Source of the DNA: a virus
Lineage: Duplodnaviria; Caudoviricetes
Virus record (IMG/VR): IMGVR_UViG_3300037424_001954
Coordinates: 1 to 30,911 of that record
Length of the DNA: 30,911 nt
Reading direction: 5' to 3' (one strand)
The position numbers and the translations under genes are program-made. Positions 1-30,911 of this stretch are shown here, piece by piece (position 1 is the stretch's first letter; every line of letters starts with the position of its first letter). A model generated the notes under the pieces. The model worked only from the letters and a program-made list of their open reading frames with translations. It ran no database searches and was not told where the DNA came from.

Positions 1-126
1 CCCCTGATGGAGATTATGCAAGGACACATCCCGGACGAGGAGAGCCCGGACGGTGATTGCTGGGAGACATGGGAAGAACTCAGCGAGGCGGCAGCCGATG
101 AAGTTTACGGTGCCATAGCGCCATAA
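1..126 (+). CDS. 3' end of an acidic hypothetical protein (probable cassette ORF, partial)
   Basis: Frame 1 is open (PLMEIMQGHIPDEESPDGDCWETWEELSEAAADEVYGAIAP*); its TAA at 124-126 lies within the attC core CCATAAC. Confidence 0.65.
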   Translation, partial: PLMEIMQGHIPDEESPDGDCWETWEELSEAAADEVYGAIAP

Positions 127-205
127 CACGCCGATAAGCGGCGGAGAGAACTGCCCCGACAGGGGCCGGACGGTGAAACCGTCCGCTTGATTGGGCTGGT
201 TAGCC
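121..205 (-). other. attC site (85 bp)
   Basis: Minus strand reads GGCTAAC-CAGCCCAATCAAGCGG...CCGCTTATCGGCGT-GTTATGG: RYYYAAC...GTT cores around an imperfect inverted repeat. Confidence 0.85.
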
Positions 206-252
206 CTAAACAGCCACTATTCCGCGCCATTACAAACGAGGAGAAACCTATC

Positions 253-594
253 ATGACCGGAGCTGAGATCATCGCCGCGGAGCGACAACGGCAAATCGAG
301 GAAGAGGGGTGGTCGCCTGAACACGATGACGAGCACGGGCGCGGACAACTTGCCCGTGCTGCTGAAAACTATGTCCGGTTTGCGGCAGAACCCGATGTCG
401 CACGGGATTACCAGAGAAAAAACGGGCATACCCCTGGTGGGTGGCCGTGGCACTGGAGCTGGTGGAAGCCGAGCCAAGGGAGTACCTCGGCCGACCGTAT
501 CCGGGACCTGGCAAAGGCTGGTGCGCTGGTCGCCGCAGAAATTGACCGGCTGCAACGGGGAGAAGAGCGCGGCTTTTTAGTGGCACAGGGCTAA
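253..594 (+). CDS. Phage accessory protein (cassette ORF), 'AAERQRQIEEEGWSPEHDD...WPW..WWKP...L.KAGAL..AEIDRL' family
   Basis: ATG 253 follows GAGGAG; the motif is a recurrent phage hypothetical domain; the stop TAA is supplied by the attC core. Confidence 0.8.
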   Translation: MTGAEIIAAERQRQIEEEGWSPEHDDEHGRGQLARAAENYVRFAAEPDVARDYQRKNGHTPGGWPWHWSWWKPSQGSTSADRIRDLAKAGALVAAEIDRLQRGEERGFLVAQG

Positions 595-647
595 CGCTTG
601 AGGTCAAGGGCTCGCGTAGCGAGTCCGCTTGCAGCGATTTGTTAAGC
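589..647 (-). other. attC site (59 bp, classic 59-base element)
   Basis: Minus strand: GCTTAAC AAATCGCTGCAAGCGGACTCGCTACGCGAGCCCTTGACCTCAAGC GTTAGCC; resembles aadA-type attC ending TCAAGCGTTAG. Confidence 0.9.
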
Positions 648-664
648 CACCGATGGAGGAACTG

Positions 665-1054
665 ATGGAACAAAACCCTTGTGACGCCTGCCGGAATGCG
701 GATTGTGCAAAGCTGATCAACCCCTGTACTGATCGATTGTGGTTTGCTCACACACAACTTCGATGGATACCGGTTTCAGAAATGCTGCCAGTGAGCGGCC
801 GAAAGGTCATCTCTTTTTATCGAAACGATAACGGCAAGCCCCGCCGGATAATGGCGTATCACGCTGACCCGTTTTCCATCGAAAGCGACGATGATGACCA
901 GCATGAAGCGTTCGAGTACAGCGAAGAAAATGATCAATATTATTTGCGCGAAGGATGGTACGAAAACAACGAGTTCGATGATGTCAACTGGTGTGTTTCC
1001 GGCTGCATTACGCACTGGATGGAGTTGCCACCGCCGCCCGTTGAGGTGGCTTAA
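665..1054 (+). CDS. DUF551-like phage protein (cassette ORF)
   Basis: RWIPVSEMLP...ITHWMELPPPP motif; GGAGGA RBS before ATG 665; stop TAA lies in the attC core. Confidence 0.8.
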   Translation: MEQNPCDACRNADCAKLINPCTDRLWFAHTQLRWIPVSEMLPVSGRKVISFYRNDNGKPRRIMAYHADPFSIESDDDDQHEAFEYSEENDQYYLREGWYENNEFDDVNWCVSGCITHWMELPPPPVEVA

Positions 1055-1106
1055 CGCTTGAGATCAGCCGCCCGTCTTTTGGGTCGGCTGGAGCGATTGG
1101 TTCACT
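1049..1106 (-). other. attC site (58 bp)
   Basis: Minus strand: AGTGAAC CAATCGCTCCAGCCGACCCAAAAGACGGGCGGCTGATCTCAAGC GTTAAGC. Confidence 0.88.
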
Positions 1107-1152
1107 GGCACCGGACCCCGCTTTTTCCCGCTGATACAAACTGGAGGATGTA

Positions 1153-1752
1153 GTGAGAATATTGGTAGGCTGCGAGGAAAATGGCAAGACGCGGGACGCA
1201 TTTGCTGCTCTTGGGCATGACGCATGGAGTTGTGATCTTCTGCCGTCGCGCAGGCTAGGTAATCACCTGCAAATGGACATCTTCCGGGCACTAATAAAAC
1301 ACGGGCCGTGGGACGTGGTTATCCTGCACCCTGATTGTACAAAGCTGACCGTTGCTGGAAATCGCTGGTACGGCGAGGGGACGGCGGGCTACCCGTACCG
1401 CATTGCGGCGATGGAATGGACGGCGATGCTGTGGAACGTAGCGAAGATGATCGCCCGCGTAGGCGTGGCTCTGGAAAACCCGGTGGGCGTACTCGGCAAG
1501 ACACCGATGGGGAAGCCGAGCCAGTACATACACCCGTGGCAATTCGGCCACGGCGAGACGAAGAAAACCTGCCTCTGGCTGCACAACCTGCCGCCACTGG
1601 CGGCGACGAAGATCGTTGAAGGCCGGGAACAGCGGATTTGGAAAATGCCGCCAAGCGAGGACCGCAAGCGGTTGCGAAGCGAGACTTACGACGGGTGGTC
1701 CGAAGCGATGGCCGCGCAATGGGGCAGATACGCCGAGCAGGTAGCGGCTTGA
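1153..1752 (+). CDS. Phage DNA cytosine (C5) methyltransferase-like protein (cassette ORF nearest attI)
   Basis: MRILVGCEE..., AWSCDLLP, HPDCT (PC-like catalytic motif) and ENPVG motifs typical of short phage C5-MTase-like proteins; GGAGGA RBS with GTG start. Confidence 0.72.
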   Translation: MRILVGCEENGKTRDAFAALGHDAWSCDLLPSRRLGNHLQMDIFRALIKHGPWDVVILHPDCTKLTVAGNRWYGEGTAGYPYRIAAMEWTAMLWNVAKMIARVGVALENPVGVLGKTPMGKPSQYIHPWQFGHGETKKTCLWLHNLPPLAATKIVEGREQRIWKMPPSEDRKRLRSETYDGWSEAMAAQWGRYAEQVAA

Positions 1753-1784
1753 TGCCCTTGCGGGGCCTTTAAGCGGGCGGTGCC

Positions 1785-1821
1785 AGTGAACAATGATTCT
1801 ACCGCTTAAATGCGGCCTATC
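1785..1821 (-). other. attI candidate 1
   Basis: Minus-strand core GTTCACT (1785-1791) complements the AGTGAAC of the first attC. There is no attC hairpin on the intI side; instead a 30-bp block is repeated exactly at 8494-8523. Position just 5' of intI is canonical for attI. Confidence 0.75.
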
Positions 1822-1863
1822 TCTCACCCCTGAATAGCCATAACTCCAAGAAAGGAGCGGATC

Positions 1864-2865
1864 ATGAACACGGCACCGTCCGGGCAACCCCCGCATTCGA
1901 CTGAGCAGCACAAACCGAAGGTGCTGGACCTGATCCGCAACCACTGCCGGGTGAAGCATCTGAGCGACAAGACCGCGGCCACCTATTGCGGGTGGGTGCG
2001 GCGCTTCAGTCTGTTTCACCACAAGCGGCCGCTCTCGGCCATGGGGACGCCGGAGATCGAGGAGTTCCTCACCCACCTGGCCACGGGGCACAACGTGGCG
2101 GCCTCGACGCAGAATCAGGCCTTCAACGCCCTGCTCTTCCTCTACACCCACGTCATCCCCAAGGATCTGGGCAAGATCGACGCCATCCGCGCCAAGAAGC
2201 CGAAGCGGCTGCCGGCGGTCTTCACCCGGGCCGAGGTGGCGGCGGTGCTGGGGAATCTCTTCGGCACCGAGAAGCTGATGGGGCTGCTGCTCTACGGCTG
2301 TGGCCTGCGGCTGAACGAGTGCTTGGCGCTGCGGGTGAAAGACATCGATTTCGACCGGCAGACAGTGACGGTGATGGAGGGCAAGGGGAACAAGGACCGG
2401 GTGGTGATGCTGCCGCAGTCGGCCGCCGAGCTGCTGCGGGCGCACCTGGCGCGGGTGGCCGAGCTGCACCGGCAGGACGCTGCCAACCATATCGGCGTCT
2501 CGCTGCCGGGCGCCCTGGAGAAGAAATATCCCTCGGCGCCGTTTGCCTGGCCGTGGTACTGGGTTTTCCCGGCTCGCAAGGTCTGCACGGACCCGCGCTG
2601 GGCGCTGGAGCGGCCGAAGCGGCACCACATCCACGAGACGGTGCTGCAGAAGGCGATGAAGGCGGCGATCGGCAAGGCGCAGGTGGCCAAGCACGCCGGC
2701 TGCCACACGCTGCGGCACAGCTTCGCGACGCATCTGCTCGAGGACGGCTACGACATCCGCACGGTGCAGGAGCTGTTGGGGCATGCCGACGTGCGCACTA
2801 CGATGATTTACACCCACGTGATGGGCAAGGGCTGCAGCGTGAAGAGTCCGGCGGATCGGCTCTGA
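1864..2865 (+). CDS. intI: Integron integrase (tyrosine recombinase)
   Basis: STQNQAFNALLFLY, GLRLNE, GKGNKDR, integron-specific insertion (ALEKKYP...WPWYWVFPA...RHHIHE), HTLRHSFATH, VQELLGH, TTMIYTHV; catalytic R-K-H-R-H-Y intact; AAGGAG RBS. Confidence 0.95.
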   Translation: MNTAPSGQPPHSTEQHKPKVLDLIRNHCRVKHLSDKTAATYCGWVRRFSLFHHKRPLSAMGTPEIEEFLTHLATGHNVAASTQNQAFNALLFLYTHVIPKDLGKIDAIRAKKPKRLPAVFTRAEVAAVLGNLFGTEKLMGLLLYGCGLRLNECLALRVKDIDFDRQTVTVMEGKGNKDRVVMLPQSAAELLRAHLARVAELHRQDAANHIGVSLPGALEKKYPSAPFAWPWYWVFPARKVCTDPRWALERPKRHHIHETVLQKAMKAAIGKAQVAKHAGCHTLRHSFATHLLEDGYDIRTVQELLGHADVRTTMIYTHVMGKGCSVKSPADRL

Positions 2866-2902
2866 GTATTTCTTTCGATTCAATGACCAAGGCGGGATTG
2901 TA

Positions 2903-5900
2903 ATGACCGACGACTTCCAGCGCGTCAAAAGCGCCCTCTCCATCCACAACGTGATCACCGGCCAGACGGCCCTGGCGATCAACGCCGCCGGCCACCTGGA
3001 ACACTGCCCCTTCTGCTCACACAAGGACTGCTTTTCCATCCCGAAGGGGAAGGAGTTCTTCAAGTGCCACAGCTGCGATCGCGGCGGCGACGTCTTCACC
3101 TTTTTGCAAGAGCTGCACAGCCTGGACCAGGCGGGCGCCCTGAAAATGGCGGCGGAGCTGGCGAACATCGCCCTGGACGAGCGCAAGGAGAAGCGCGGGC
3201 CGCGCCTGACGGTGGTGGACAAGATACGCCTTGCGGCCGCCGAGTACTATCACGGCCACATGCTGGAGAACGGCGGCAAGGCGTATTTTCTGGAGAAGCG
3301 CGGGCACAGCCTGGAGACGGCGCAGAAGGAGAAGCTGGGCTGGAGCGACGGCCACCTGCTGGACCACCTGCGCACCCAGGGCTTTGAGCAGAAAGACATT
3401 CTGGAGAGCGGCCTGGTGCGGGAGAAGGAGATCGAGGGCGGCACGCGCCTGCTCGACTTTTTCGGCAAAGGCCTGGCGATCTTCCCCCACTACGCCGGCG
3501 GCCGGGTGCTGCATTTTACCCAGAAGGACGCCCGGGAGGTGCCGAAGGAGGAGAAGCTCAAGTACCAGCTGCCCAACGATAAGCGGGACAAGCGCTGGTC
3601 GTTCTACGGGCAGGACGCCCTGGAGCGCTTCGAGGAGATCATCCTCGTCGAGGGGGAGAATGACCGGCTGCAGGTGCTGAACGCCGGCCCCTTCGGCGTG
3701 ATGGGGATGATCGGCCAGATCAGCGACGATCAGCTCAAGGCGCTCTCCTCCCGCGGCCGGGGCAAGCATCTTTATCTGTGGATGGACAACGACGAGGCGG
3801 GCGTCAAGTACATCCGCAAAATCTGCCGCTCGCTGCCGGCGGAGATGGTGGTCAAGGTGATCGCCTACGGCAAGCCGGGGGACGATCCGGATTCATATCT
3901 CAAGGCCTTCGAGGGGGACCGCAAGCGCGAGGTGCGCCGGCTGCAGCTGGAGTCGGTGGATTACATCAGCTGGGAGATCGCCCAGGGGGCCAATCTGCCC
4001 AACCTCGAGGAGAAGCTGCGCCACCTGCAGGCGCCGGGCAAGGACGAGAAGGGCAACGTCTTCCGGCTGATCGGCCGGCAGCCGGCGATTCAGCAGGACA
4101 TTTTTAAGGAGAAGCTGCTGGCCCTGGGCTTTAGCGAGAAGGCGGTGGAACAGCAGTTGGATTTCAGCGCCGATCTCTACAAGCAGATCAGCGACCACCT
4201 GGGGATGCTGGACAACCCGAAGGACGCCGACCCGATCGTGCTGGGCGAAATCTGCTTCAAGTTCTTCGCCCACCACGGCCGCTTCTATTTCGACCGGGAA
4301 AACCGGGTCTGGCTGATTTATCAGAATCGCACCTACGAGGTGGGCAACGATGTGGCCTTCAACTCGCTGATGTTGAAGATGACCCGGATGATCTACAGCA
4401 AGGCGCCGGGGGCGCAGGTCTGGGACGCGCTGAAGCATACGGCGTACCTGAACGGCCGGCAGATCAACCTCTGCCAGTGGATCCACACGGACGTGGTGAA
4501 GGATACCATCTACCTAAACCTGAACAGCTCGGGCAACATCATCCTGAAGGTCTCGAAGGACCGGGTGGAGGAAATCCAGAACGGGATGAACGACGATCAC
4601 GTGCTGCTTTCCTCGAGCCACAAGATCCATCCCATGACCTGGCTGCCGGACGTGGACGTCCAGGAGGGAATGCTGGCGCTGAAGACGCTGATCTTCGACA
4701 ACCTGACGGTGAAGAAGGAGCAGAAGTATTTGATTCTGGCCTGGCTGATCTCGGGCTTTTGTCCGGACATGGCGCCGTACCAGTTCCTGATGAAGTTCGC
4801 CGGCTATGCCTCCAGCGGTAAATCGACGGCCTCGAAGCTGATCACGGCCCTGGTGTACGGCAGCGAGCAACTCAGCGACCCGTCGGGGGCGGCGGCGTTT
4901 TCCTCGGCGGCGAAGAACCCGATCCTGGTCATCGACAACCTGGAGAACAAAGACCTGACCCGCGGCATGCAGAAGTTCCTGCTGCTGGCGGCGACGCGCG
5001 GCCAGAAAGAGAAGCGGGCGGCGGGGACGGATACCGACACGGTGGACGAGAGCCCGCGGGCGCTGATCAACGTGACGGCGATCGAGCCGTTCACGCTTTC
5101 GGAGCTGATCAGCCGGACCTTCGAGATCACCTTCGATCGGCGAGTCTTTGGCTCGGACGACTTCCACGAGTCGGAGGTGCTCGAGCAAATCAAGAAAAAG
5201 CGGGACCTGATCCTCTCGGCGCTGGTGCGCTTCATCCAGCGGGAGATTCTGCCCCACCTGGACCAGCGCAAGGAGTACATGACCATCCTGAACAAGTCCT
5301 TCAAGGGGCATGCGAAGGACCGCACCAACGCCTACCTGGCGCTACTGATGCTGATTCTCTCGAGGATGCTGAAGTACATCCCGCATTATGGCCCGGAGGA
5401 TCTGCTCTACGGCCTGGAGACGGGGGAGCCGGACATCTACCGAGCCTGGATCGAGGAGCAGAACTCGGCGGCGAAGGAGACGGAGATCGGCAGCAATAAC
5501 ATCCTGCAGCTGCTGGGCGGCCTGATGCGCGAGTATCTGCAGTGGTTCAAGGGGAAGAGCCTGACGGCAGGCCCGGTGACCGGGTATGACGAGCCGATGT
5601 TCGTCCTGGAGCATCCGGAGTATGGCCTGACGGTGCTGAAGAGCGCGCCGGGGATCTACTGCTCGGTCTGCTCGCAGCAGGCCGAGGCCTGCGCCTGTGG
5701 CGGTGAGCGCTACACGCGGTCGACCATGGAGTTCGAGGCGACCAGCGCGGAGATCGTCGACGCCTTCGACCGCTACGCTAAGCTGACGGGCAAGCGCAAT
5801 CCCTATGATAGTGCGGCGGTGTTCGGGGCCCGGCTGCGTAATGACCTGGGGCTGCTCAAGAAGGACGGCTGGGAGGTGATCACCAAGGAGGGGATCGAGC

Positions 5901-5962
5901 CGTACTACCGGCGCGTGCAGGGCAAGCGCTTTCTCAAGTTCCGTTACACGGTGATCCGGTAG
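2903..5962 (+). CDS. Phage primase-helicase (CHC2-type Zn finger + Toprim + P-loop NTPase)
   Basis: CPFC...CHSC Zn finger, VEGEND and MDNDEAG Toprim motifs, Walker A GYASSGKST, Walker B ILVIDN. Confidence 0.88.
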   Translation: MTDDFQRVKSALSIHNVITGQTALAINAAGHLEHCPFCSHKDCFSIPKGKEFFKCHSCDRGGDVFTFLQELHSLDQAGALKMAAELANIALDERKEKRGPRLTVVDKIRLAAAEYYHGHMLENGGKAYFLEKRGHSLETAQKEKLGWSDGHLLDHLRTQGFEQKDILESGLVREKEIEGGTRLLDFFGKGLAIFPHYAGGRVLHFTQKDAREVPKEEKLKYQLPNDKRDKRWSFYGQDALERFEEIILVEGENDRLQVLNAGPFGVMGMIGQISDDQLKALSSRGRGKHLYLWMDNDEAGVKYIRKICRSLPAEMVVKVIAYGKPGDDPDSYLKAFEGDRKREVRRLQLESVDYISWEIAQGANLPNLEEKLRHLQAPGKDEKGNVFRLIGRQPAIQQDIFKEKLLALGFSEKAVEQQLDFSADLYKQISDHLGMLDNPKDADPIVLGEICFKFFAHHGRFYFDRENRVWLIYQNRTYEVGNDVAFNSLMLKMTRMIYSKAPGAQVWDALKHTAYLNGRQINLCQWIHTDVVKDTIYLNLNSSGNIILKVSKDRVEEIQNGMNDDHVLLSSSHKIHPMTWLPDVDVQEGMLALKTLIFDNLTVKKEQKYLILAWLISGFCPDMAPYQFLMKFAGYASSGKSTASKLITALVYGSEQLSDPSGAAAFSSAAKNPILVIDNLENKDLTRGMQKFLLLAATRGQKEKRAAGTDTDTVDESPRALINVTAIEPFTLSELISRTFEITFDRRVFGSDDFHESEVLEQIKKKRDLILSALVRFIQREILPHLDQRKEYMTILNKSFKGHAKDRTNAYLALLMLILSRMLKYIPHYGPEDLLYGLETGEPDIYRAWIEEQNSAAKETEIGSNNILQLLGGLMREYLQWFKGKSLTAGPVTGYDEPMFVLEHPEYGLTVLKSAPGIYCSVCSQQAEACACGGERYTRSTMEFEATSAEIVDAFDRYAKLTGKRNPYDSAAVFGARLRNDLGLLKKDGWEVITKEGIEPYYRRVQGKRFLKFRYTVIR

Positions 5963-6275
5963 CAAGTCTCCAAACCGGTTGCAAGTGGTTGCAAGTCTCC
6001 CCTGGAAGGGGAGCATCTGAGGCGAAATTAGAGCCTCAGGCCCTTTTAATAAGCTCTGCCGCGCGCAGGGGGCGCATTTTTCAGAACTTGCAACCTTGCT
6101 ACTAAATTAAGTTAAATAGTTGATTTTATTATAGTTATGTTGGTTGCAAGTCCGGTTGCAAGTTGGTTGCAAGTTGGTTGCAAGTTGGTTGCAAGTCTCG
6201 GCGGGTTTTGGAACTTGCAACCAAGCGCAAAGCCAGCAACCATGCGGGTTTGAGGGGTAAAGTAGCAAGGTTGCA
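5958..6275. repeat. Iteron cluster, probable phage replication origin
   Basis: GGTTGCAAGT at 5977, 5987, 6142, 6154, 6165, 6176, 6187; inverted copies at 6086 and 6213; variant GGTAGCAAGT at 5958; AT-rich core ~6101-6141; 15-bp inverted repeat 6089-6103/6261-6275. Confidence 0.8.
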
Positions 6276-6284
6276 GCTTGAAAA

Positions 6285-6608
6285 ATGGGGGTCATCTTGG
6301 TGGAAAAGCTAAATATGCAGTATGAGGCACTGTGCAGGGTTCTTGATCAGATGTCGGGTGGTGCGCCCGTGTTGAAGGTCGATTTATTCTTTATTCACGC
6401 ACATTTACAGGAATCATGTCAGGTTGAGATGGGGGCCGTTTTAAGAAATAAGGATAGAATCAGGAGGTTTCTTTCCGTGGTGGAGGTGCACCAGGCTGCC
6501 GGTGAACTCCTCGGCCCATGGCGGGTGTCTTCGGAGATGGTGATATTTAACCGGATGCGCGCACCGAGATCCGTCCTTTATACCTTTTCTCGGGAAGGTG
6601 GTTCGTGA
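6285..6608 (+). CDS. Hypothetical protein
   Basis: 107-aa ORF co-oriented with its neighbours in AT-richer DNA; start uncertain; no recognised motif. Confidence 0.45.
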   Translation: MGVILVEKLNMQYEALCRVLDQMSGGAPVLKVDLFFIHAHLQESCQVEMGAVLRNKDRIRRFLSVVEVHQAAGELLGPWRVSSEMVIFNRMRAPRSVLYTFSREGGS

Positions 6609-6997
6609 AAAGAGAGTTGTCGGTAGTTCTTTCAAGGGGTAAGTCAGGTCATTCCAGCCCTTGTCCTGTCTGCGTTTGATTCGACCCTGTGCTGGCTGTC
6701 GTCGGGTGTTTAAAAACAATGTAAAGAAATCCGACTGGAATTGACGGAATGGTGAGTTACACGTTCTTGCAAAAGGTATAACTGATGGTCGGATGGTGGG
6801 CAGGAATTCAGATAGTTGCGGAAGGTGGTCAACGTGAAAGGTATAACTGGAATGGAAAAGGGCGGGATCTGGGCCAGGCCGACCCACCCCCCCCGTCAAA
6901 GATTCAGGCAAAAATCCGGATCGCTGCCCCCGGTGCCCGTCTATGATCGCTGCCCTTGTCTAAAACCCTTTTCGAAAAGCGGGGGGGGCGGGGGGAG

Positions 6998-7975
6998 ATG
7001 AGTCTCGACAGCCTGTTTTTCGATTGGATGGAGTTCCTGCAGATTCAGAAAGGGCACCGGCCCCGCGGCGTGCTCCAGTATGAGCGAGTGATCCGCTCCT
7101 TCTTTCACTGGCTGGAGGGGCAAGGGAAAGAGATCAACCCGGGCCGGGTAACGCGGGAGGTGATCGGCGAGTGGCTGCGGGATCTCTTCTACGAGCAGGG
7201 CAACATCTCCAACCGCTCCCGGGCCTCGAAACTCTCGGCTCTGCGCTCCTTCTTCGGTTATCTGAAATATGTCGGCTTGATCGCCGCCGACCCGACCAAG
7301 GGCATCCCGTCGCCGAAGATCCAGCCGTCGCTGCCGCAAAAATTCAGCACCGAGGAGCTGCGCATGCTTTTCTCCGCGCCGGCGCGGGACACCACCCAGG
7401 GACTTCGCGACCTGGCCATCCTCAAGACGCTCTACGCTTCGGGCCTGCGCGTCAGCGAGCTGGTGAGCCTCGATTGTGCGCACCTGGTCGACACCGGCGG
7501 GTACATCCGCCTGCAGGTGATGGACGGCAACGCCAAGGGCGGCAAGGGCCGCACCCTGACCCTGCGTACCAATCCATCAAAGACGCTGCGGGAATGGCTG
7601 TTGCTGCGCCGGGAGATGGGCGTCGCCGACGATGCCCTGTTCGTTGCCCTGCGGGCGGGCAGGGGCCGGCGGCTCTCCGAGAGGTCAATCCTCAACGTGA
7701 TCAAAAAATATGCCGCCACGGTCGGAATCGACAGAGCCGATGCCTTCTGCCACAAAATGCGCTCCACCTTCGCCACCGATCTTTACGACAGCGGCCACGA
7801 TAAATGCAGCCGCTGCGGACACCCGGTGCAGTACGTCGGCCTGATCGAGTTGGCTGTGCTGATGGGGCACGAGGATGTCAAAACCACCATGGGTTACGTC
7901 GCTATTTCCGAGAGGACGCTCCGGAGGACGGCGATTCCCGATAAGCGTTTTAATGAAATCGAACAGGAGGATTGA
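6998..7975 (+). CDS. XerC/D-like tyrosine recombinase
   Basis: SAM-like N-terminal domain (SRASKLSALRSFFGYL), GLRVSEL, KGGKGR, HKMRSTFAT, LMGH, TTMGY; ATG 6998 follows a G-rich RBS. Confidence 0.88.
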   Translation: MSLDSLFFDWMEFLQIQKGHRPRGVLQYERVIRSFFHWLEGQGKEINPGRVTREVIGEWLRDLFYEQGNISNRSRASKLSALRSFFGYLKYVGLIAADPTKGIPSPKIQPSLPQKFSTEELRMLFSAPARDTTQGLRDLAILKTLYASGLRVSELVSLDCAHLVDTGGYIRLQVMDGNAKGGKGRTLTLRTNPSKTLREWLLLRREMGVADDALFVALRAGRGRRLSERSILNVIKKYAATVGIDRADAFCHKMRSTFATDLYDSGHDKCSRCGHPVQYVGLIELAVLMGHEDVKTTMGYVAISERTLRRTAIPDKRFNEIEQED

Positions 7976-8241
7976 TGACCAGGAGCGACAACGCGGAGGT
8001 GGTGGAGCAGCTCTTCGACCGGTTGCATGGCGAATTCGGACGGCTGGCGCCGCAGATCATCCAGGTAATCACCGAGATGGTGGGTCGAACTCGGGTGACC
8101 TTTCCAGGCCTCGACGACCTTTACCGGGCCGAGAGGAATAAGCGGATCCGGAAGGAGTTCACCGGCGCGAACTATGAGGAGCTGGCGATCAAGTACCGCC
8201 TGCGAGTGCGCCAGGTGCGGCGGGTGATTCGGCATGGGTAA
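7972..8241 (+). CDS. Mor/C-family transcription activator (late-gene activator)
   Basis: GRTRVTFP...ERNKRIRKEFTGANYEELAIKYRLRVRQVRRVI matches the Mor family HTH pattern; overlaps the recombinase stop. Confidence 0.85.
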   Translation: MMTRSDNAEVVEQLFDRLHGEFGRLAPQIIQVITEMVGRTRVTFPGLDDLYRAERNKRIRKEFTGANYEELAIKYRLRVRQVRRVIRHG

Positions 8242-8292
8242 CGACTGACTTCAGCCGCGAGCGGAGCGAGTCCGCTGGAAGGATTGTTATGC
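8236..8292 (-). other. attC site (57 bp) overlapping the Mor stop codon
   Basis: Minus strand: GCATAAC AATCCTTCCAGCGGACTCGCTCCGCTCGCGGCTGAAGTCAGTC GTTACCC; shares GCGAGTCCGCT (+ strand) with the attC at 589-647. Confidence 0.85.
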
Positions 8293-8495
8293 CAAAAACC
8301 AAATGCCCAGGGTCAAAACAAAAGCCCCGGGTTGAATTCCCAGACACCGTGACCAGACGGTTCACTGATGGAGGGCATTCGCATCAAAGCGTTATCCACC
8401 ACTGCCCCGCTGGATGTGGCCGTGGATGGGGCCGCAATAACCGGGAAAACGGCTGGCCAGATTTGCCAATTCCTGTCCATTTCGTAGAGGCATAA
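8289..8495 (+). CDS. Small Cys/His-containing hypothetical protein (lone cassette ORF)
   Basis: 68-aa ORF filling the interval between GTTATGCC (8286) and GGCATAA (8489-8495) exactly; RBS-like GGAAGGA lies inside the attC. Confidence 0.65.
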   Translation: MPKTKCPGSKQKPRVEFPDTVTRRFTDGGHSHQSVIHHCPAGCGRGWGRNNRENGWPDLPIPVHFVEA

Positions 8496-8523
8496 TGATT
8501 CTACCGCTTAAATGCGGCCTATC
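8489..8523 (-). other. attI candidate 2 (core lacks AAC)
   Basis: AATGATTCTACCGCTTAAATGCGGCCTATC (8494-8523) is identical to 1792-1821 and abuts the cassette end GGCAT. Confidence 0.7.
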
Positions 8524-8543
8524 CCCGGAGCGTGGAAATGATT

Positions 8544-8586
8544 TAGTGTCCTCCCCTGCCAGATCATGACCTTGTTTTCTGATAAT
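8544..8586 (+). promoter_or_regulatory. Putative late promoter / Mor-type activator site 1
   Basis: 31-bp motif 8544-8574 matches 13586-13616 at 30/31 positions; followed by GATAAT (8581-8586); upstream of the terminase operon. Confidence 0.65.
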
Positions 8587-8633
8587 CAGCCCTCTATGGC
8601 GTGGAAAAGCATCCACCCTGGAGGGCTTTTTTC

Positions 8634-9464
8634 ATGGACATTCAGGATAAACAGACCGCCCTGCGGCTGATCCCGTCGCAAAAGGAAGACCTCAAGCGCC
8701 GCATCGATGCCGGCGAAAGGGGGCTGGCCGACGAGCTGGAGCATCTTATGTCGCTGGAGGCGCGCCTGCGCACGGCGATCGAGACGGCCGACGAGGACGA
8801 GCCCGACCCGGTCATGGAGCGCCTGCGGGTCAAGCGCAGCTACACCATGACGCCGGCCGCCCTGGAGCAGCGTCTGGCCGCCTCCGCAAAATCGACGGGG
8901 CCGACCACCGAGGAGGGCAAGGCCCGCTGCAGCGGCAACGCCTGGAAGCACGGGCTGCATGCCAAGAAGCGTCTGCTCGGCCTCGGCAAACCCTGCAAGA
9001 GCACCTGCCAGAAATACCCCTGCTCCCTGGTCGATGAGGGCGACGTCTCGCCCGGCGGCAACTGCATCGACAAGGAATACTTCCTCACCACTCTGAACGC
9101 CCTCTCCAGCGCCATGCAGGCCGGCGACCTCACCGACCTCAAGCACGTGGTCACCCTGCAGCTCGGCGGGACCCTGCAGGTGATCGACGAGCTGCAGGCC
9201 TCGATCCTCGAGTATGGCGTCTATATGAAGTCCGAGAAGATCGACAAGGATGGCAAGGTGACCGGCTACGAAATCAAGCCCAACCCGTCGCTGCTTCCGC
9301 TCTCCAACCTGCTTAAGGCCGCCGGCGTCACCATGCCCGACTTCATGGTCACCCCGGCCGCCGTCGAGAAGATCAAGACCGACAAGGAGACCGTCGACAC
9401 CCTGGCCGACATCTTCCGCGGCGCCGGCAACGCGCTGGCCCAGGCGAAGAAGAAGAAGGCCTGA
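8634..9464 (+). CDS. Probable terminase small subunit
   Basis: Directly upstream of terL; STGPTTEEGKARCSGNAWKHG motif; C-terminal 'EIKPNPSL' segment; Cys cluster. Confidence 0.6.
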   Translation: MDIQDKQTALRLIPSQKEDLKRRIDAGERGLADELEHLMSLEARLRTAIETADEDEPDPVMERLRVKRSYTMTPAALEQRLAASAKSTGPTTEEGKARCSGNAWKHGLHAKKRLLGLGKPCKSTCQKYPCSLVDEGDVSPGGNCIDKEYFLTTLNALSSAMQAGDLTDLKHVVTLQLGGTLQVIDELQASILEYGVYMKSEKIDKDGKVTGYEIKPNPSLLPLSNLLKAAGVTMPDFMVTPAAVEKIKTDKETVDTLADIFRGAGNALAQAKKKKA

Positions 9465-9468
9465 GCGG

Positions 9469-11271
9469 ATGCTGATGCAGCCCCTGGAATCGTCCGAGGA
9501 TTTGAAAAAAGGCATCATCGTGCCGGCCGAGATTTTCGACCGCACCCTGCGCGAGCTCGACTGGACCTGGCACCAGGCCGCCCGCGGCGAGCTGCCGCCG
9601 CCCTTCACCTCGCTGCAGGAGTTCCAGCTGGCCATCATCTGCGCCGATCCGCTGCTGTGGTGCACGGCTTTTCTGCGCGAGCCGACCGATCCCGACCACA
9701 AGGATCCTTACTCCTTCTTCGAATACCAGCTGGAATCGTTGCGCTGCGACACCTCGGTGGTGCACCAGGACGGCGCCGAGGTCGGCAAGACCCGCGAGAT
9801 CGTCGCCTGGAGCCTGTGGAAGAGCTTCACCTGTCCCAATGGCTCGGGCCTGATCGGCGCGCCGCTGCAGATCCACCTAGACGAGATCATCGACGCCAAG
9901 CTCGACCAGCTGCACACCTTCAATCCCAGCCTCGGCAAGAGCCTGGTCAAGCACAAGAAACAACCCTACACCCAATTCACCTACGCCAACCGGTTCAAGG
10001 AGGACTTCCGCCCGGCCGGTTTCGACGGCAACGCCTACCGCGGCGTGCATGCCGAGACCTACGGCATTGTCGACGAGGCGGCCAAGAAGAAGAACAAGCC
10101 GCAGTGGACCGAGTTCTGGCGCTCTCTCAAGCCGTCGGCCTCGGCCCGCATCTACTCGGTGCCGGACGGCGACCGGGAAAGCGGCTACTACAAGCTGACC
10201 ATGCGCGCCGGCGGCAAGGCGGCCGACGGGGACAAGGCAATCGTCGGCGACAATTACGCCTGGACGCTCTTCCGCTGGGGCAAGGATCTGATGCCGCCGC
10301 CGTTCTGGACTCCGGAGCGCCGGCGCTTCTATATCGACCAGTACGGCGGCGAGGACTCCCCCGGCTTCCGGCACAACGTTCTGGGCGAGCACGGCGACCC
10401 GGAGAACACCGTCTTCCCCTGGCACCAGTTCCGCCTCTGCATCAAGGACGTCCCCGAATACCGGGCGCTCAAAGTGCTGGTCGACGCCGCCCGGGACACC
10501 GTCACCGTCGAGGGCTACAGCTGCCTCTACGAGTTGGGCGGCGAAGGGCCGATCCCGAAACACCAGATCCTCCTCGAGGAGGTTTTCAGCGCCGCCCAGC
10601 TTTTTGCGGTGGACAGCGAAAATAACAGCCAGTTCAAAGCCCTGATCCGTTCCTTCTTCGTGGCGGTACCTGGGGCCAAGCGCGGCGGCGGCGACTTCGG
10701 TTTTTCCCAGGACCCGACCGAGATCTACGCCAAGAACATTATCGGCAAGCGCGAGCGGCTCGTTGCCCGGCTGCAGCTCAAGCAAGTCACCTACGACCAG
10801 CAATGTCAGGCGATAGACGCCATGGACGATATGTACGGCCCGGCTGAGTCGCTGGTCTGGGGGACGGACTTCGGCAACGCCGGCAGCGCCATCGCTCATG
10901 ACCTGCAGGGGCTTTCCCAGTACGCGGACAAGAACTATGACGACCGGCTCAAGGGCTTCATGTTCCAGTCGACCACCGACAACGTCGACGACCAGGGCGA
11001 GCCGATCACCGACGCCAAGACCGGCAAGCCGGCGAAGATCACTCTGAAGGAGCTGGCCACCGATCTGCTGGTCAAGAAGATGCAGCGCCAACTGCTCGAA
11101 TACCCGCCGGATCAGGACATCATCCTCGCCTACACCAACCACACCTGCCGCATCGGCGAGCGGCAGCGCATCTACAACAAGGAAAACGACCACCTCATCG
11201 ATGCCGACCGGGCGCAGCAGCTCGCCGGCGTGCTGGGGAACGACGTGGAGGATCTGTTCGACTGCGGGTAG
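9469..11271 (+). CDS. terL: Terminase large subunit
   Basis: P-loop-like AEVGKTRE, Walker B GIVDEAA, RNase H-like nuclease motifs GGDFGFSQDPT and DHLIDA; lies before the portal. Confidence 0.85.
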   Translation: MLMQPLESSEDLKKGIIVPAEIFDRTLRELDWTWHQAARGELPPPFTSLQEFQLAIICADPLLWCTAFLREPTDPDHKDPYSFFEYQLESLRCDTSVVHQDGAEVGKTREIVAWSLWKSFTCPNGSGLIGAPLQIHLDEIIDAKLDQLHTFNPSLGKSLVKHKKQPYTQFTYANRFKEDFRPAGFDGNAYRGVHAETYGIVDEAAKKKNKPQWTEFWRSLKPSASARIYSVPDGDRESGYYKLTMRAGGKAADGDKAIVGDNYAWTLFRWGKDLMPPPFWTPERRRFYIDQYGGEDSPGFRHNVLGEHGDPENTVFPWHQFRLCIKDVPEYRALKVLVDAARDTVTVEGYSCLYELGGEGPIPKHQILLEEVFSAAQLFAVDSENNSQFKALIRSFFVAVPGAKRGGGDFGFSQDPTEIYAKNIIGKRERLVARLQLKQVTYDQQCQAIDAMDDMYGPAESLVWGTDFGNAGSAIAHDLQGLSQYADKNYDDRLKGFMFQSTTDNVDDQGEPITDAKTGKPAKITLKELATDLLVKKMQRQLLEYPPDQDIILAYTNHTCRIGERQRIYNKENDHLIDADRAQQLAGVLGNDVEDLFDCG

Positions 11272-13585: not shown

Positions 13586-13628
13586 TAGTGTCATCCCCTG
13601 CCAGATCATGACCTTGAATTTTGGTAAC
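13586..13628 (+). promoter_or_regulatory. Putative late promoter / Mor-type activator site 2
   Basis: TAGTGTCATCCCCTGCCAGATCATGACCTTG with GTCAT-N13-ATGAC dyad; upstream of the protease-capsid operon. Confidence 0.65.
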
Positions 13629-30033: not shown

Positions 30034-30109
<76 letters not shown>

Positions 30110-30114
30110 CTTGT

Positions 30115-30155
30115 AAAAAACGGGGGCCGGCACATTGTGTCGGCCCCCGTTTTTT
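30115..30155 (+). terminator. Rho-independent (bidirectional-type) terminator
   Basis: AAAAAACGGGGGCCGGCACA-T-TGTGTCGGCCCCCGTTTTTT. Confidence 0.85.
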
Positions 30156-30169
30156 ACTCAGCTTTTGCC

Positions 30170-30199
30170 TTGACAAACTTTAATGATTTTGATTAAAGT
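30170..30199 (+). promoter_or_regulatory. Sigma70-like promoter of the cytochrome gene
   Basis: TTGACA-N18-TAAAGT in AT-rich intergenic DNA; AGGAGG RBS downstream. Confidence 0.55.
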
Positions 30200-30241
30200 T
30201 ATCCCGCTTTAATATTTCCCACAAACAGGAGGAGAAGAATC

Positions 30242-30511
30242 ATGAAGAAACTGCTCGTTGCTGCAATGCTCGTCGCCTTCGCCGCCTCGACCGCCATGGC
30301 CGCCGACACGGTCACGCTCGAAGCCAAAAACGGAAACGTCACCTTCAACCACAAGAAACACAGCGAGTCGATGGAGTGCAAGATCTGCCACGGCGAAGGC
30401 ACCCCTGGCAAGCTTGAGCTCGACAAAGACAAGGCCCACGCCCTCTGCAAGGACTGCCACACCACCAAAGCCGCCGGCCCGACCAAGTGCGGCGACTGCC
30501 ACAAAAAGTAA
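30242..30511 (+). CDS. ppcA: Periplasmic triheme cytochrome c7 (PpcA family)
   Basis: Signal peptide (…AMA|AD), GNVTFNHKKH, three CxxCH motifs (CKICH, CKDCH, CGDCH), GPTKCGDCHKK end. Confidence 0.93.
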   Translation: MKKLLVAAMLVAFAASTAMAADTVTLEAKNGNVTFNHKKHSESMECKICHGEGTPGKLELDKDKAHALCKDCHTTKAAGPTKCGDCHKK

Positions 30512-30532
30512 TCGTCTGCTTTTCCCTTCCTT

Positions 30533-30557
30533 AAAAGGCCCCGTTCGGGGCCTTTTT
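30533..30557 (+). terminator. Rho-independent terminator
   Basis: AAAAGGCCCCG-TT-CGGGGCCTTTTT. Confidence 0.8.
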
Positions 30558-30651
30558 CTATTTTTAACCGTCTTTGTAAAAAAACCGGGAGCCTGCGTTC
30601 CCGCAGGCCCCCGGTTCCATGACGAGGAAACGTTATCAGCCGCCTCTCCCC

Positions 30652-30911
30652 TCAGGGAACGCCGGCACTGGTCGTATAGCTGAATCCTTCCTTGTAAAAA
30701 GCGACAGAATCTCTCTGCTCCGTTGCACAGCGCAGCCAGAAGGCAGCCTGTTCATAGTCGCGCGGCACACCCTGTCCGGTCTCATACATCAGCGCCAGGC
30801 GGCGCTGGGCCTCAACCTCCCCTTGACCTGCCGCAAGACGCAGCCACGGCAACGCTTCAGCATATTCCTGGCGGTCAAGGAAGTATTCGCCGAGCAGGAC
30901 CTGCGCCTCAA
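30652..30911 (-). CDS. Sel1-like repeat protein, 3' part (host)
   Basis: Frame is open to the window edge: EAQVLLGEYF...WLRLAAGQGEVEAQRRLALMYETGQGVPRDYEQAAFWLRCATEQ. Confidence 0.85.
   Translation of the reverse strand, partial: EAQVLLGEYFLDRQEYAEALPWLRLAAGQGEVEAQRRLALMYETGQGVPRDYEQAAFWLRCATEQRDSVAFYKEGFSYTTSAGVP

Follow-up and report, generated by a model that had tools for sequence, protein, structure and literature searches.

The window analysed here, a stretch of 30,911 bases representing the entire virus record IMGVR_UViG_3300037424_001954 (Caudoviricetes), was found to contain a phage integron that is probably a working one. Its platform, the integron integrase gene intI with the adjoining attI site, is of the normal kind, and its cassettes are built as mirror images, with the attC site placed before the gene and the sense strand of the gene being the recombining bottom strand of attC. 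The polarity of the sites, the cassette unit, the point of insertion, the turnover of cassettes among strains and the presence of the same layout in many phage arrays were shown by sequence comparison.

The intI gene (1864-2865, plus strand) was found to encode an intact integron integrase of 333 aa, with a TIGR02249 score of 401 bits against a cut-off of 265. In the alignment with IntI1 and the IntI of Vibrio and Shewanella, the residues R149, K174, H281, R284, H307 and Y316 were all found to be kept, together with the IntI-specific insertion, which was absent from the other tyrosine recombinase of the phage, and the best solved structural relative was PDB 2a3v (E 6e-78). The attI site (1785-1821, minus strand) was found 5′ of intI, where the original prediction had placed it, with the crossover G|TT on the minus strand between 1791 and 1790, 73 nt before the intI start. 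The core of this attI reads GAAC and holds no stop codon, and the core TAA was the stop of an upstream open reading frame (ORF) of at least 65 aa in six of eight phage relatives. In these eight relatives, which were picked by a 7-nt motif lying within the first 7 nt after AAC, the 30 nt to the right of the attI AAC were 43% identical pairwise and the 25 nt to the left just 25-28%. A pattern scan for this attI returned one metagenome contig and no viral contig, and five LexA box patterns, which may not correspond to the box of the host, gave no match in 1701-1900.

The locus was thus found to contain the parts of a complete integron: an IntI, an adjoining attI with G|TT, attC sites with R′′/L′′/L′/R′ boxes and extrahelical bases in one orientation (attC1 being marginal) and, from population evidence, the exchange of cassette units. 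The intI gene on the plus strand and the attC sites on the minus strand are opposed, and not in the same orientation as in an inverted-integrase integron, and the main array adjoins intI, unlike the array of a cluster of attC sites lacking an integron integrase (CALIN). Among the related viral loci, L003 was found to contain two tandem intI copies (5767-6594 and 9061-10059), each with its own attI, with tightly packed ORFs and no detected attC between them, and L036 was found to contain only a C-terminal intI piece (3912-4037, a 51-aa open frame) beside a seven-site inverted array.

The attC sites were located with a covariance model made from 25 bacterial attC top strands, six of class 1, one of Shewanella and 18 from fetched bacterial genome loci. 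The main array was found to contain attC1 (121-205; 12.2 bits, E 0.67; spacers 6/5), a weak site belonging to cassette C, followed by attC2 (589-647; 27.8 bits) of cassette B and attC3 (1049-1106; 34.4 bits) of cassette A. The site attC4 (8236-8292; spacers 4/6) in a second array scored 46.5 bits on the minus strand against 10.8 on the plus strand. All four were placed on the minus strand, the three strong sites with E values of 1e-4 to 3e-9, and one weak plus-strand match (961-1001, 15.4 bits) was found inside ORF2. A geometric scorer that has no training set, and that assigned the control sites of class 1 and Shewanella to their correct strand, gave minus/plus scores of 13.5/11.6 for attC2, 13.5/10.5 for attC3 and 13.8/10.4 for attC4; no site at score 14 was found in five block-shuffled windows, a loose control, the real sites scoring just under that cut-off. 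The attC-aadA7 bottom strand listed in Table S3 of PMC9892861 begins like the plus strand of attC2 and attC3. From the model, the scorer and this published strand, the plus strand was therefore identified as the bottom, recombining strand. The canonical sense foreseen on the minus strand was thus recovered by the model at all four sites and by the scorer at the three strong ones, and the plus-strand polarity that would have contradicted it was not assigned. Folding both strands, which had been proposed as a further check, did not discriminate between them: unconstrained folds of either strand gave no polarity signal, and attC1 folded into a branched form.

The first 14 nt of the cassette at attI were found to be the exact complement of the R′′ side of attC3, followed by 11 and 9 complementary nt in the next two cassettes. 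From this end complementarity and the attI crossover, the cassettes were delimited as A (1055-1790), B (595-1054), C (127-594) and D (to 126). Public assemblies, compared as contigs only and in four of the 13 listed runs (X5-X13, with small shares, were left out), gave breaks at the same places. Run X1, which may be the source of the window, has contigs that cover the window with no difference; neighbouring ones share 30 nt, these overlaps ending at 127 and 1791, each the C of AAC, and the depth falls from 22.4 to 13.7 and 11.7 across the breaks. These ends are read as branches immediately behind the crossover. Three contigs begin to match at 1789: a minor one of X1 and one of X3, both with unlike DNA to the left, and one of X2, which itself starts there. 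The match of an X3 contig, which comes from another study, is confined to 593-1066, the stretch of attC2 and ORF2. Under the opposite polarity the cuts would fall at the plus-strand GTT positions (199, 641 and 1100); among the matches listed no piece ends at these, and one X3 loose end lies at 1103. Because the contig breaks fall on the minus-polarity crossovers (127, 593 and 1789-1791), the mobile unit is the attC with the ORF behind it. The cassettes common to L020 and L036 (81%) and to L034 and L052 (93%) likewise span the upstream attC to the next AAC. The entry of new cassettes at the intI-proximal end, as predicted, is supported by the model polarity, the 9/11/14-nt end complementarity, the conservation of attI only to the right of the crossover in the eight relatives and the contig breaks. 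One X3 contig was found to join both ends of the ORF3 cassette (1146-1760) with the middle unmatched, possibly the same cassette frame with another gene inside.

These data also bear on two other explanations of the reversed appearance. The phage IntI may have switched its strand preference, in which case the cassettes would be functionally ordinary, each a gene followed by its attC, and only the hairpins would look reversed. Viewed from the gene, TAAC and a hairpin do come after each ORF, just as they do in an ordinary cassette, the end complementarity of the inner cassettes is symmetrical and uninformative on polarity, and the IntI of the window belongs to a virus-only group in the tree described below. 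However, ORF3 is followed by attI and not by attC, the breaks and the shared units end at plus-strand AAC and not at plus-strand GTT, and inverted arrays also accompany IntI placed elsewhere in the tree and records without a full-length IntI (L052 and L053), and such a switch is considered highly improbable. The other explanation, chance hairpins or an assembly artefact, could find support in attC1 alone; its probability is practically nil, and it is refuted by the three strong sites beside an intact intI and attI, by the X1 contigs and by the recurrence of the layout in unrelated contigs.

The main array was found to contain four ORFs on the plus strand. ORF0 (1-126), the 3′ end of cassette D, is a 41-aa open frame cut by the contig end, without a family match and with the stop TAA (124-126) in the R′ box of attC1. 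It is followed by ORF1 (253-594, 113 aa), which contains a common phage domain of unknown function (phrog_6628, E 6e-27) and has its stop in R′ of attC2, and by ORF2 (665-1054, 129 aa), a DUF551 protein (PF04448 over the cut-off; phrog_924, E 1.5e-10) with its stop in R′ of attC3. ORF3 (1153-1752, 199 aa) is phage DNA methyltransferase-like (phrog_757, E 1.5e-57), and its stop, TGA at 1750-1752, lies outside any core, 38 nt short of the attI core. The core is thus used as a stop by three of the four cassettes of the main array. Before the second array, the gene of a Mor-family activator (7972-8241, plus strand; PF08765) also has its stop in R′, here of attC4; being present in relatives both with and without an array behind it, this is a fixed phage gene and not a cassette gene, and its stop is the R′ box of the attC of the next cassette. 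The TAAC motifs at 124, 592, 1052 and 8239 were all present, closing ORF0, ORF1, ORF2 and Mor, so that the claim that attC cores double as stop codons stood for these four and failed for ORF3, with the qualification that Mor is no cassette gene.

The coding strand was supported by family matches, since ORF1, ORF2 and ORF3 match phage families and none of the six minus-strand ORFs of the two arrays matched PHROG or Pfam. When the relatives were included, a PHROG match was found in 9 of 28 plus-strand array ORFs against 0 of 14 minus-strand ORFs, these being hand-picked candidates and not all ORFs. The predicted location of cassette ORFs on the plus strand therefore holds for each ORF with a protein-family match, and all three such genes of the main array sit on the attC bottom strand, unlike those of the canonical unit. 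The minus-strand ORF at 217-555, the sole 'canonical' call within the window, was rejected as it had no family match.

The survey of generality covered 37 viral loci with IntI relatives and 21 with relatives of the primase, two loci being common to both sets, together with the best 80 of 563 bacterial IntI loci. By ORF length, the 62 viral sites comprised 32 inverted, 11 canonical, 3 ambiguous and 16 uncalled sites, and the 60 bacterial sites comprised 0 inverted, 47 canonical, 1 ambiguous and 12 uncalled sites. By locus, the 20 viral loci with a call were 13 inverted, 4 tied and 3 canonical, and 19/19 bacterial loci were canonical (Fisher p 4e-7). With the geometric scorer, 29 of 63 viral sites were called inverted and 9 canonical, against 0 inverted and 41 canonical calls for the 57 bacterial sites. 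The layout is thus real and, for the phage arrays sampled, general. Of the three viral loci called 'canonical', two (L010 and L015) were mis-calls by length, with family matches on the inverted strand; length-only calls mislabel GC-rich cassettes.

The use of the core as a stop was counted in the same loci on model matches of at least 20 bits; weaker matches, four matches of the phage Rctr41k (kept as a control), one partial match and one opposite-strand duplicate were dropped. The TAA of R′ was the exact stop of an ORF of at least 50 aa at 30/62 viral sites against 3/60 bacterial sites, and the TAA of R′′ was so at 7/62 viral against 12/60 bacterial sites. The overlap of stop and core, presented in the original prediction as special, is in part ordinary: bacterial cassettes do likewise with the other box (12/60), only less often.

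In an IntI tree (FastTree, 117 sequences, 314 columns, three duplicates dropped), which is rough and has weak deep support, the IntI of the window was placed in a virus-only group of 23 (support 0.73), and other viral IntI with inverted arrays were placed elsewhere. Inversion thus appears to follow the phage context more than the IntI lineage. The published CALIN of MW202573 (L143; Qi 2023) was also found to be inverted in the first 30 of 34.6 kb, with three minus-strand sites among plus-strand genes (2069-3738) and one annotated gene ending 5 nt into an attC. P12002L was found to contain one weak inverted site (17.6 bits), and PH101 contained no attC in the first 45 kb scanned of 132 kb. The phage Rctr41k (L058, GenBank KX853513), which is not named in the tables of Qi 2023 as far as these were accessible, was found to contain at 4680-10101 an integron integrase that is labelled xerD in its annotation, followed downstream by an array of long, canonically oriented attC sites.

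Several points weigh against a working integron with mirror-built cassettes as a general phage arrangement. The 18 training sites from bacterial loci make up most of the 25 behind the model, and these loci also served as the control. The site attC1 is a marginal match, and the probabilities of the recombinogenic fold for the four sites of the window (9e-3, 1e-4, 4e-3 and ~4e-6, the lowest belonging to attC1) are far under those of class 1 controls (0.08-0.5). The sites within one locus and a few duplicate contigs are not independent, and the loci are not fully so. The arrays of TJE1 and Rctr41k are canonical, as is a site in L054, and the close relatives L001, L003 and L029 have intI and attI with no attC site by either method. 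The contig breaks may stem from co-occurring strains, and they fix the crossover and do not date activity. Finally, any upstream early promoter would lie outside the window, as the record starts inside the array, and among the public runs listed for 1-3000 none was of RNA.

The cargo itself was traced through 97 viral loci with relatives of ORF1, ORF2 or ORF3, of which 92 were scanned (5 duplicates were out). Matches to attC were found only in L147 (five, all on the minus strand), where the relative of ORF3 (81%) forms an inner inverted cassette whose attC is a different one and whose ends are again complementary. The ORF1 relatives at 81% are plain operon genes outside cassettes. The cargo thus comes from ordinary phage early genes.

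The same observation gives some room to a reading in which off-target integration dropped the attC sites as relics at the TAAC stops of a phage operon, the intervening genes being no true cassettes. The insertion of IntI at sites as short as GWT is known (10.1101/2022.09.11.507474, as far as its accessible part goes), a TAAC stop offers GTTA on the other strand and leaves the gene unbroken, and the same gene families are mostly ordinary phage genes, with attC matches in only one of the 92 loci. Against this, the cassette ends are complementary over 9-14 nt, the relative of the ORF3 cassette has different and again complementary ends, and whole units move between phages and positions. The relic reading is decidedly improbable for the present state, and the off-target route may explain the first making of cassettes.

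A mirror-built cassette of the kind favoured here would recombine and be read as follows. On the platform, intI points away from attI and the attC top strands away from intI, as is normal; attC stands in front of the gene in each cassette, and the first bases of the cassette (TTA, top strand) provide the stop codon of the gene. By ordinary IntI recombination, new cassettes would therefore land next to intI. In the relatives L041 and L030, a single strand was found to carry, one after the other, an antirepressor or CII-like gene, small ORFs, intI and the primase gene; in L038, a divergent repressor gene lies upstream and points away. This gene order suggests that the array is part of an early operon, presumably under repressor control, with a single transcript running through all cassettes into intI and the primase gene. 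Since one transcript must reach the primase gene, all cassettes would be read, whatever their rank. Expression from the phage early promoter is accordingly an interpretation based on these relatives; the promoter is out of view because the record begins inside the array. IntI would be made at induction, when replicating phage DNA probably offers single strands, and the weakly folding attC sites would recombine mainly on single-stranded DNA during replication.

Alternatively, each cassette may carry its own promoter and need no early transcript, as in the few known bacterial cassettes that face the opposite way; in Xanthomonas, the cassettes of symE and sRNA-Xcc1 point away from Pc, the integron promoter (10.1101/2025.06.18.660453, in the part available). 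The cassette leaders, from the attC end to the start codon, are just 17-47 nt long and contain ribosome-binding stretches, and in several relatives the cassette ORF starts inside attC. A consensus scan of the plus strand at 1-3000 gave no sigma-70-like site, which may not be the promoter type of the host. Own promoters are, on these grounds, improbable. The same type of scan gave no leftward sigma-70-like site in attI or intI, which is weak evidence, and two minus-strand sites inside ORF3 against 0.7 +/- 0.9 expected.

It is also conceivable that replication, and not expression, selects the orientation. If the genes are co-directional with the fork, as is assumed here, the bottom strand would lie on the lagging-strand template, which would raise folding and shuffling. 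Bottom strands on the lagging-strand template are described to recombine more often in the accessible part of PMC5371416, and the weakly folding sites of the window would gain most from single-stranded DNA. Taken alone, this leaves the co-direction with intI and the primase gene unexplained and is unlikely, though not negligibly so; it is compatible with selection for early expression, and the two may act together.

The second array (8236-8523) lies 5.4 kb from intI, behind Mor, and was found to contain one cassette, attC4 followed by about 200 nt, and a second attI copy (8494-8523, minus strand). The start of the cassette is complementary to its own R′′ over 7 nt. The attI copy is a 30-nt exact repeat of 1792-1821, and its core is 3 nt shorter than that of attI in this strain. 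A possible cassette ORF of 68 aa (8289-8495, plus strand) has its ATG inside the R′′ box, a purine-rich stretch in the attC ahead and TAA at the cassette end; it had no family match, and the locus search returned no relative. The near-identical phage L033, with a 100% identical primase protein, was found without 8233-8524. The sister contig L242 (95% identical over 8494-9369) was found to contain the attI copy at full spacing and a different inverted cassette, whose attC scores 28.5 bits and runs against two ORFs, with a TGA at the core closing the second ORF. A contig of run X2 likewise begins to match at 8494 and is unlike the window ahead of that point, and L052 and L053 were found to contain inverted arrays in the same slot behind Mor, with no IntI over the cut-off in these records (61% and 87% complete). 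From these comparisons the attI copy at 8494-8523 was shown to be a second insertion site.

The locus resembles the canonical integrons (class 1 with IntI1 and attI1, and the chromosomal integrons of Vibrio and Shewanella) in the IntI with the family insertion, attI 5′ of intI, the attC geometry, the array running away from intI, insertion at attI and a stop that often overlaps an R box. It differs from them in that the genes are antisense to attC and point towards intI, attC precedes the gene, the stop lies in R′ (bottom strand) and not in R′′, and no leftward promoter was found. In the part of PMC5027507 available, orientation towards Pc is called essential and cassettes inserted facing the promoter are said never to be seen; that statement concerns whole flipped cassettes, whereas here attC is correctly placed and the gene alone is reversed.

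Phage integrons have already been published. The integrons and CALINs of Qi 2023 (PMC9892861) share with the present locus attC sites and arrays in phages, a DNA methyltransferase cargo and, with IntI1, active bottom strands, but its three complete integrons, as described in the accessible text, are of bacterial type (Vibrio, class 1 and Shewanella), whereas here both IntI and cargo are of phage type. The same text is silent on the orientation of genes relative to attC; by the present scan its phage TJE1 is canonical and MW202573 inverted. In inverted-integrase ('reverse') integrons, for example of Treponema, intI and the cassette genes also lie on one strand, but intI is oriented as attC and the cassettes are ordinary, as far as described in the available parts of PMC4889954 and PMC13323075; in the present locus intI is opposed to attC, as usual, and it is the gene inside each cassette that is reversed. 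Among phages, the reverse type is represented by Rctr41k. The Delta-attI cassettes of class 1 and 2 integrons (PMC12901181, in its accessible part) resemble the second attI copy in being a short identical attI piece at a second place, usable in recombination; the copy here differs in lying 6.7 kb from intI, before the terminase genes, and heading its own array. In the open-access literature, subscription papers being outside this search, no account was found of phage arrays whose genes are systematically antisense to attC, and the reversed-gene layout is apparently undescribed. The present locus adds an intact platform, crossover-level assembly evidence, a bacterial control set and a second attI.

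By the textbook view, the choice of attC strand makes genes point away from attI, so that they are expressed from Pc. The phage layout would represent a second way to run an integron, in which all cassettes are expressed, the newest is last and IntI lies inside the lytic operon, and phages would gain a programmable swap of early accessory genes, methyltransferases among them. A normal bacterial cassette, if captured by this locus, would come to lie antisense and remain silent, and a phage cassette taken up by a host integron would point away from Pc. It is possible, though put forward only tentatively, that temperate phages keep a mirror-image cassette pool of their own, which uses the IntI chemistry of the host, is mutually silent with the host pool and is made at the DNA level from early genes, the TAAC stop serving as the joint. 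Bacterial cassettes include anti-phage content. If such a pool exists, host cassettes, anti-phage ones included, would land antisense in the phage, and phage cassettes would go unread in host integrons. The messenger-RNA model of cassette origin could then be tested directly on such arrays: recombination here uses the sense strand, and a cDNA of the messenger RNA would be the wrong strand. Since close non-cassette relatives exist in other phages (81% for ORF1), the locus is relevant to the question of how cassettes arise, and the before-and-after states of cassette genes can be compared.

The window is most likely a prophage with a little host DNA at the right end, as the right end contains a tRNA-Thr(CGT) gene (30034-30109, plus strand), the probable right border of the prophage, and beyond it a gene of a PpcA-like cytochrome c7 (30242-30511). 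The stretch 30034-30911, with the tRNA-Thr, the cytochrome c7 gene and a Sel1-repeat gene, was regarded as host DNA past the prophage end. The cytochrome gene suggests a Geobacter/Desulfuromonas-like host; a search of 401 genomes sampled around a Desulfuromonadaceae genome gave primase matches in 6, at only 35-37%, and did not identify the host. An Rfam scan of the window returned just the tRNA and one chance match. The portal, tail, lysis, primase and Mor genes (PHROG matches) were all found on the plus strand. The DNA primase gene (2903-5962, plus strand; phrog_47, TIGR01391 partial) starts 37 nt behind intI and is followed by an AT-rich inverted repeat (6088-6149), with related repeats at the same place in relatives, which is possibly a replication origin. 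A second tyrosine recombinase gene, XerC-like (6956-7975), lies directly before Mor, is kept across the phage family and has a small cysteine-containing insertion near the C end. A 42-nt motif before the terminase genes (8544-8585) was found to recur before the head genes (13586-13627), 88% alike and kept in relatives, and is likely a Mor-activated late promoter.

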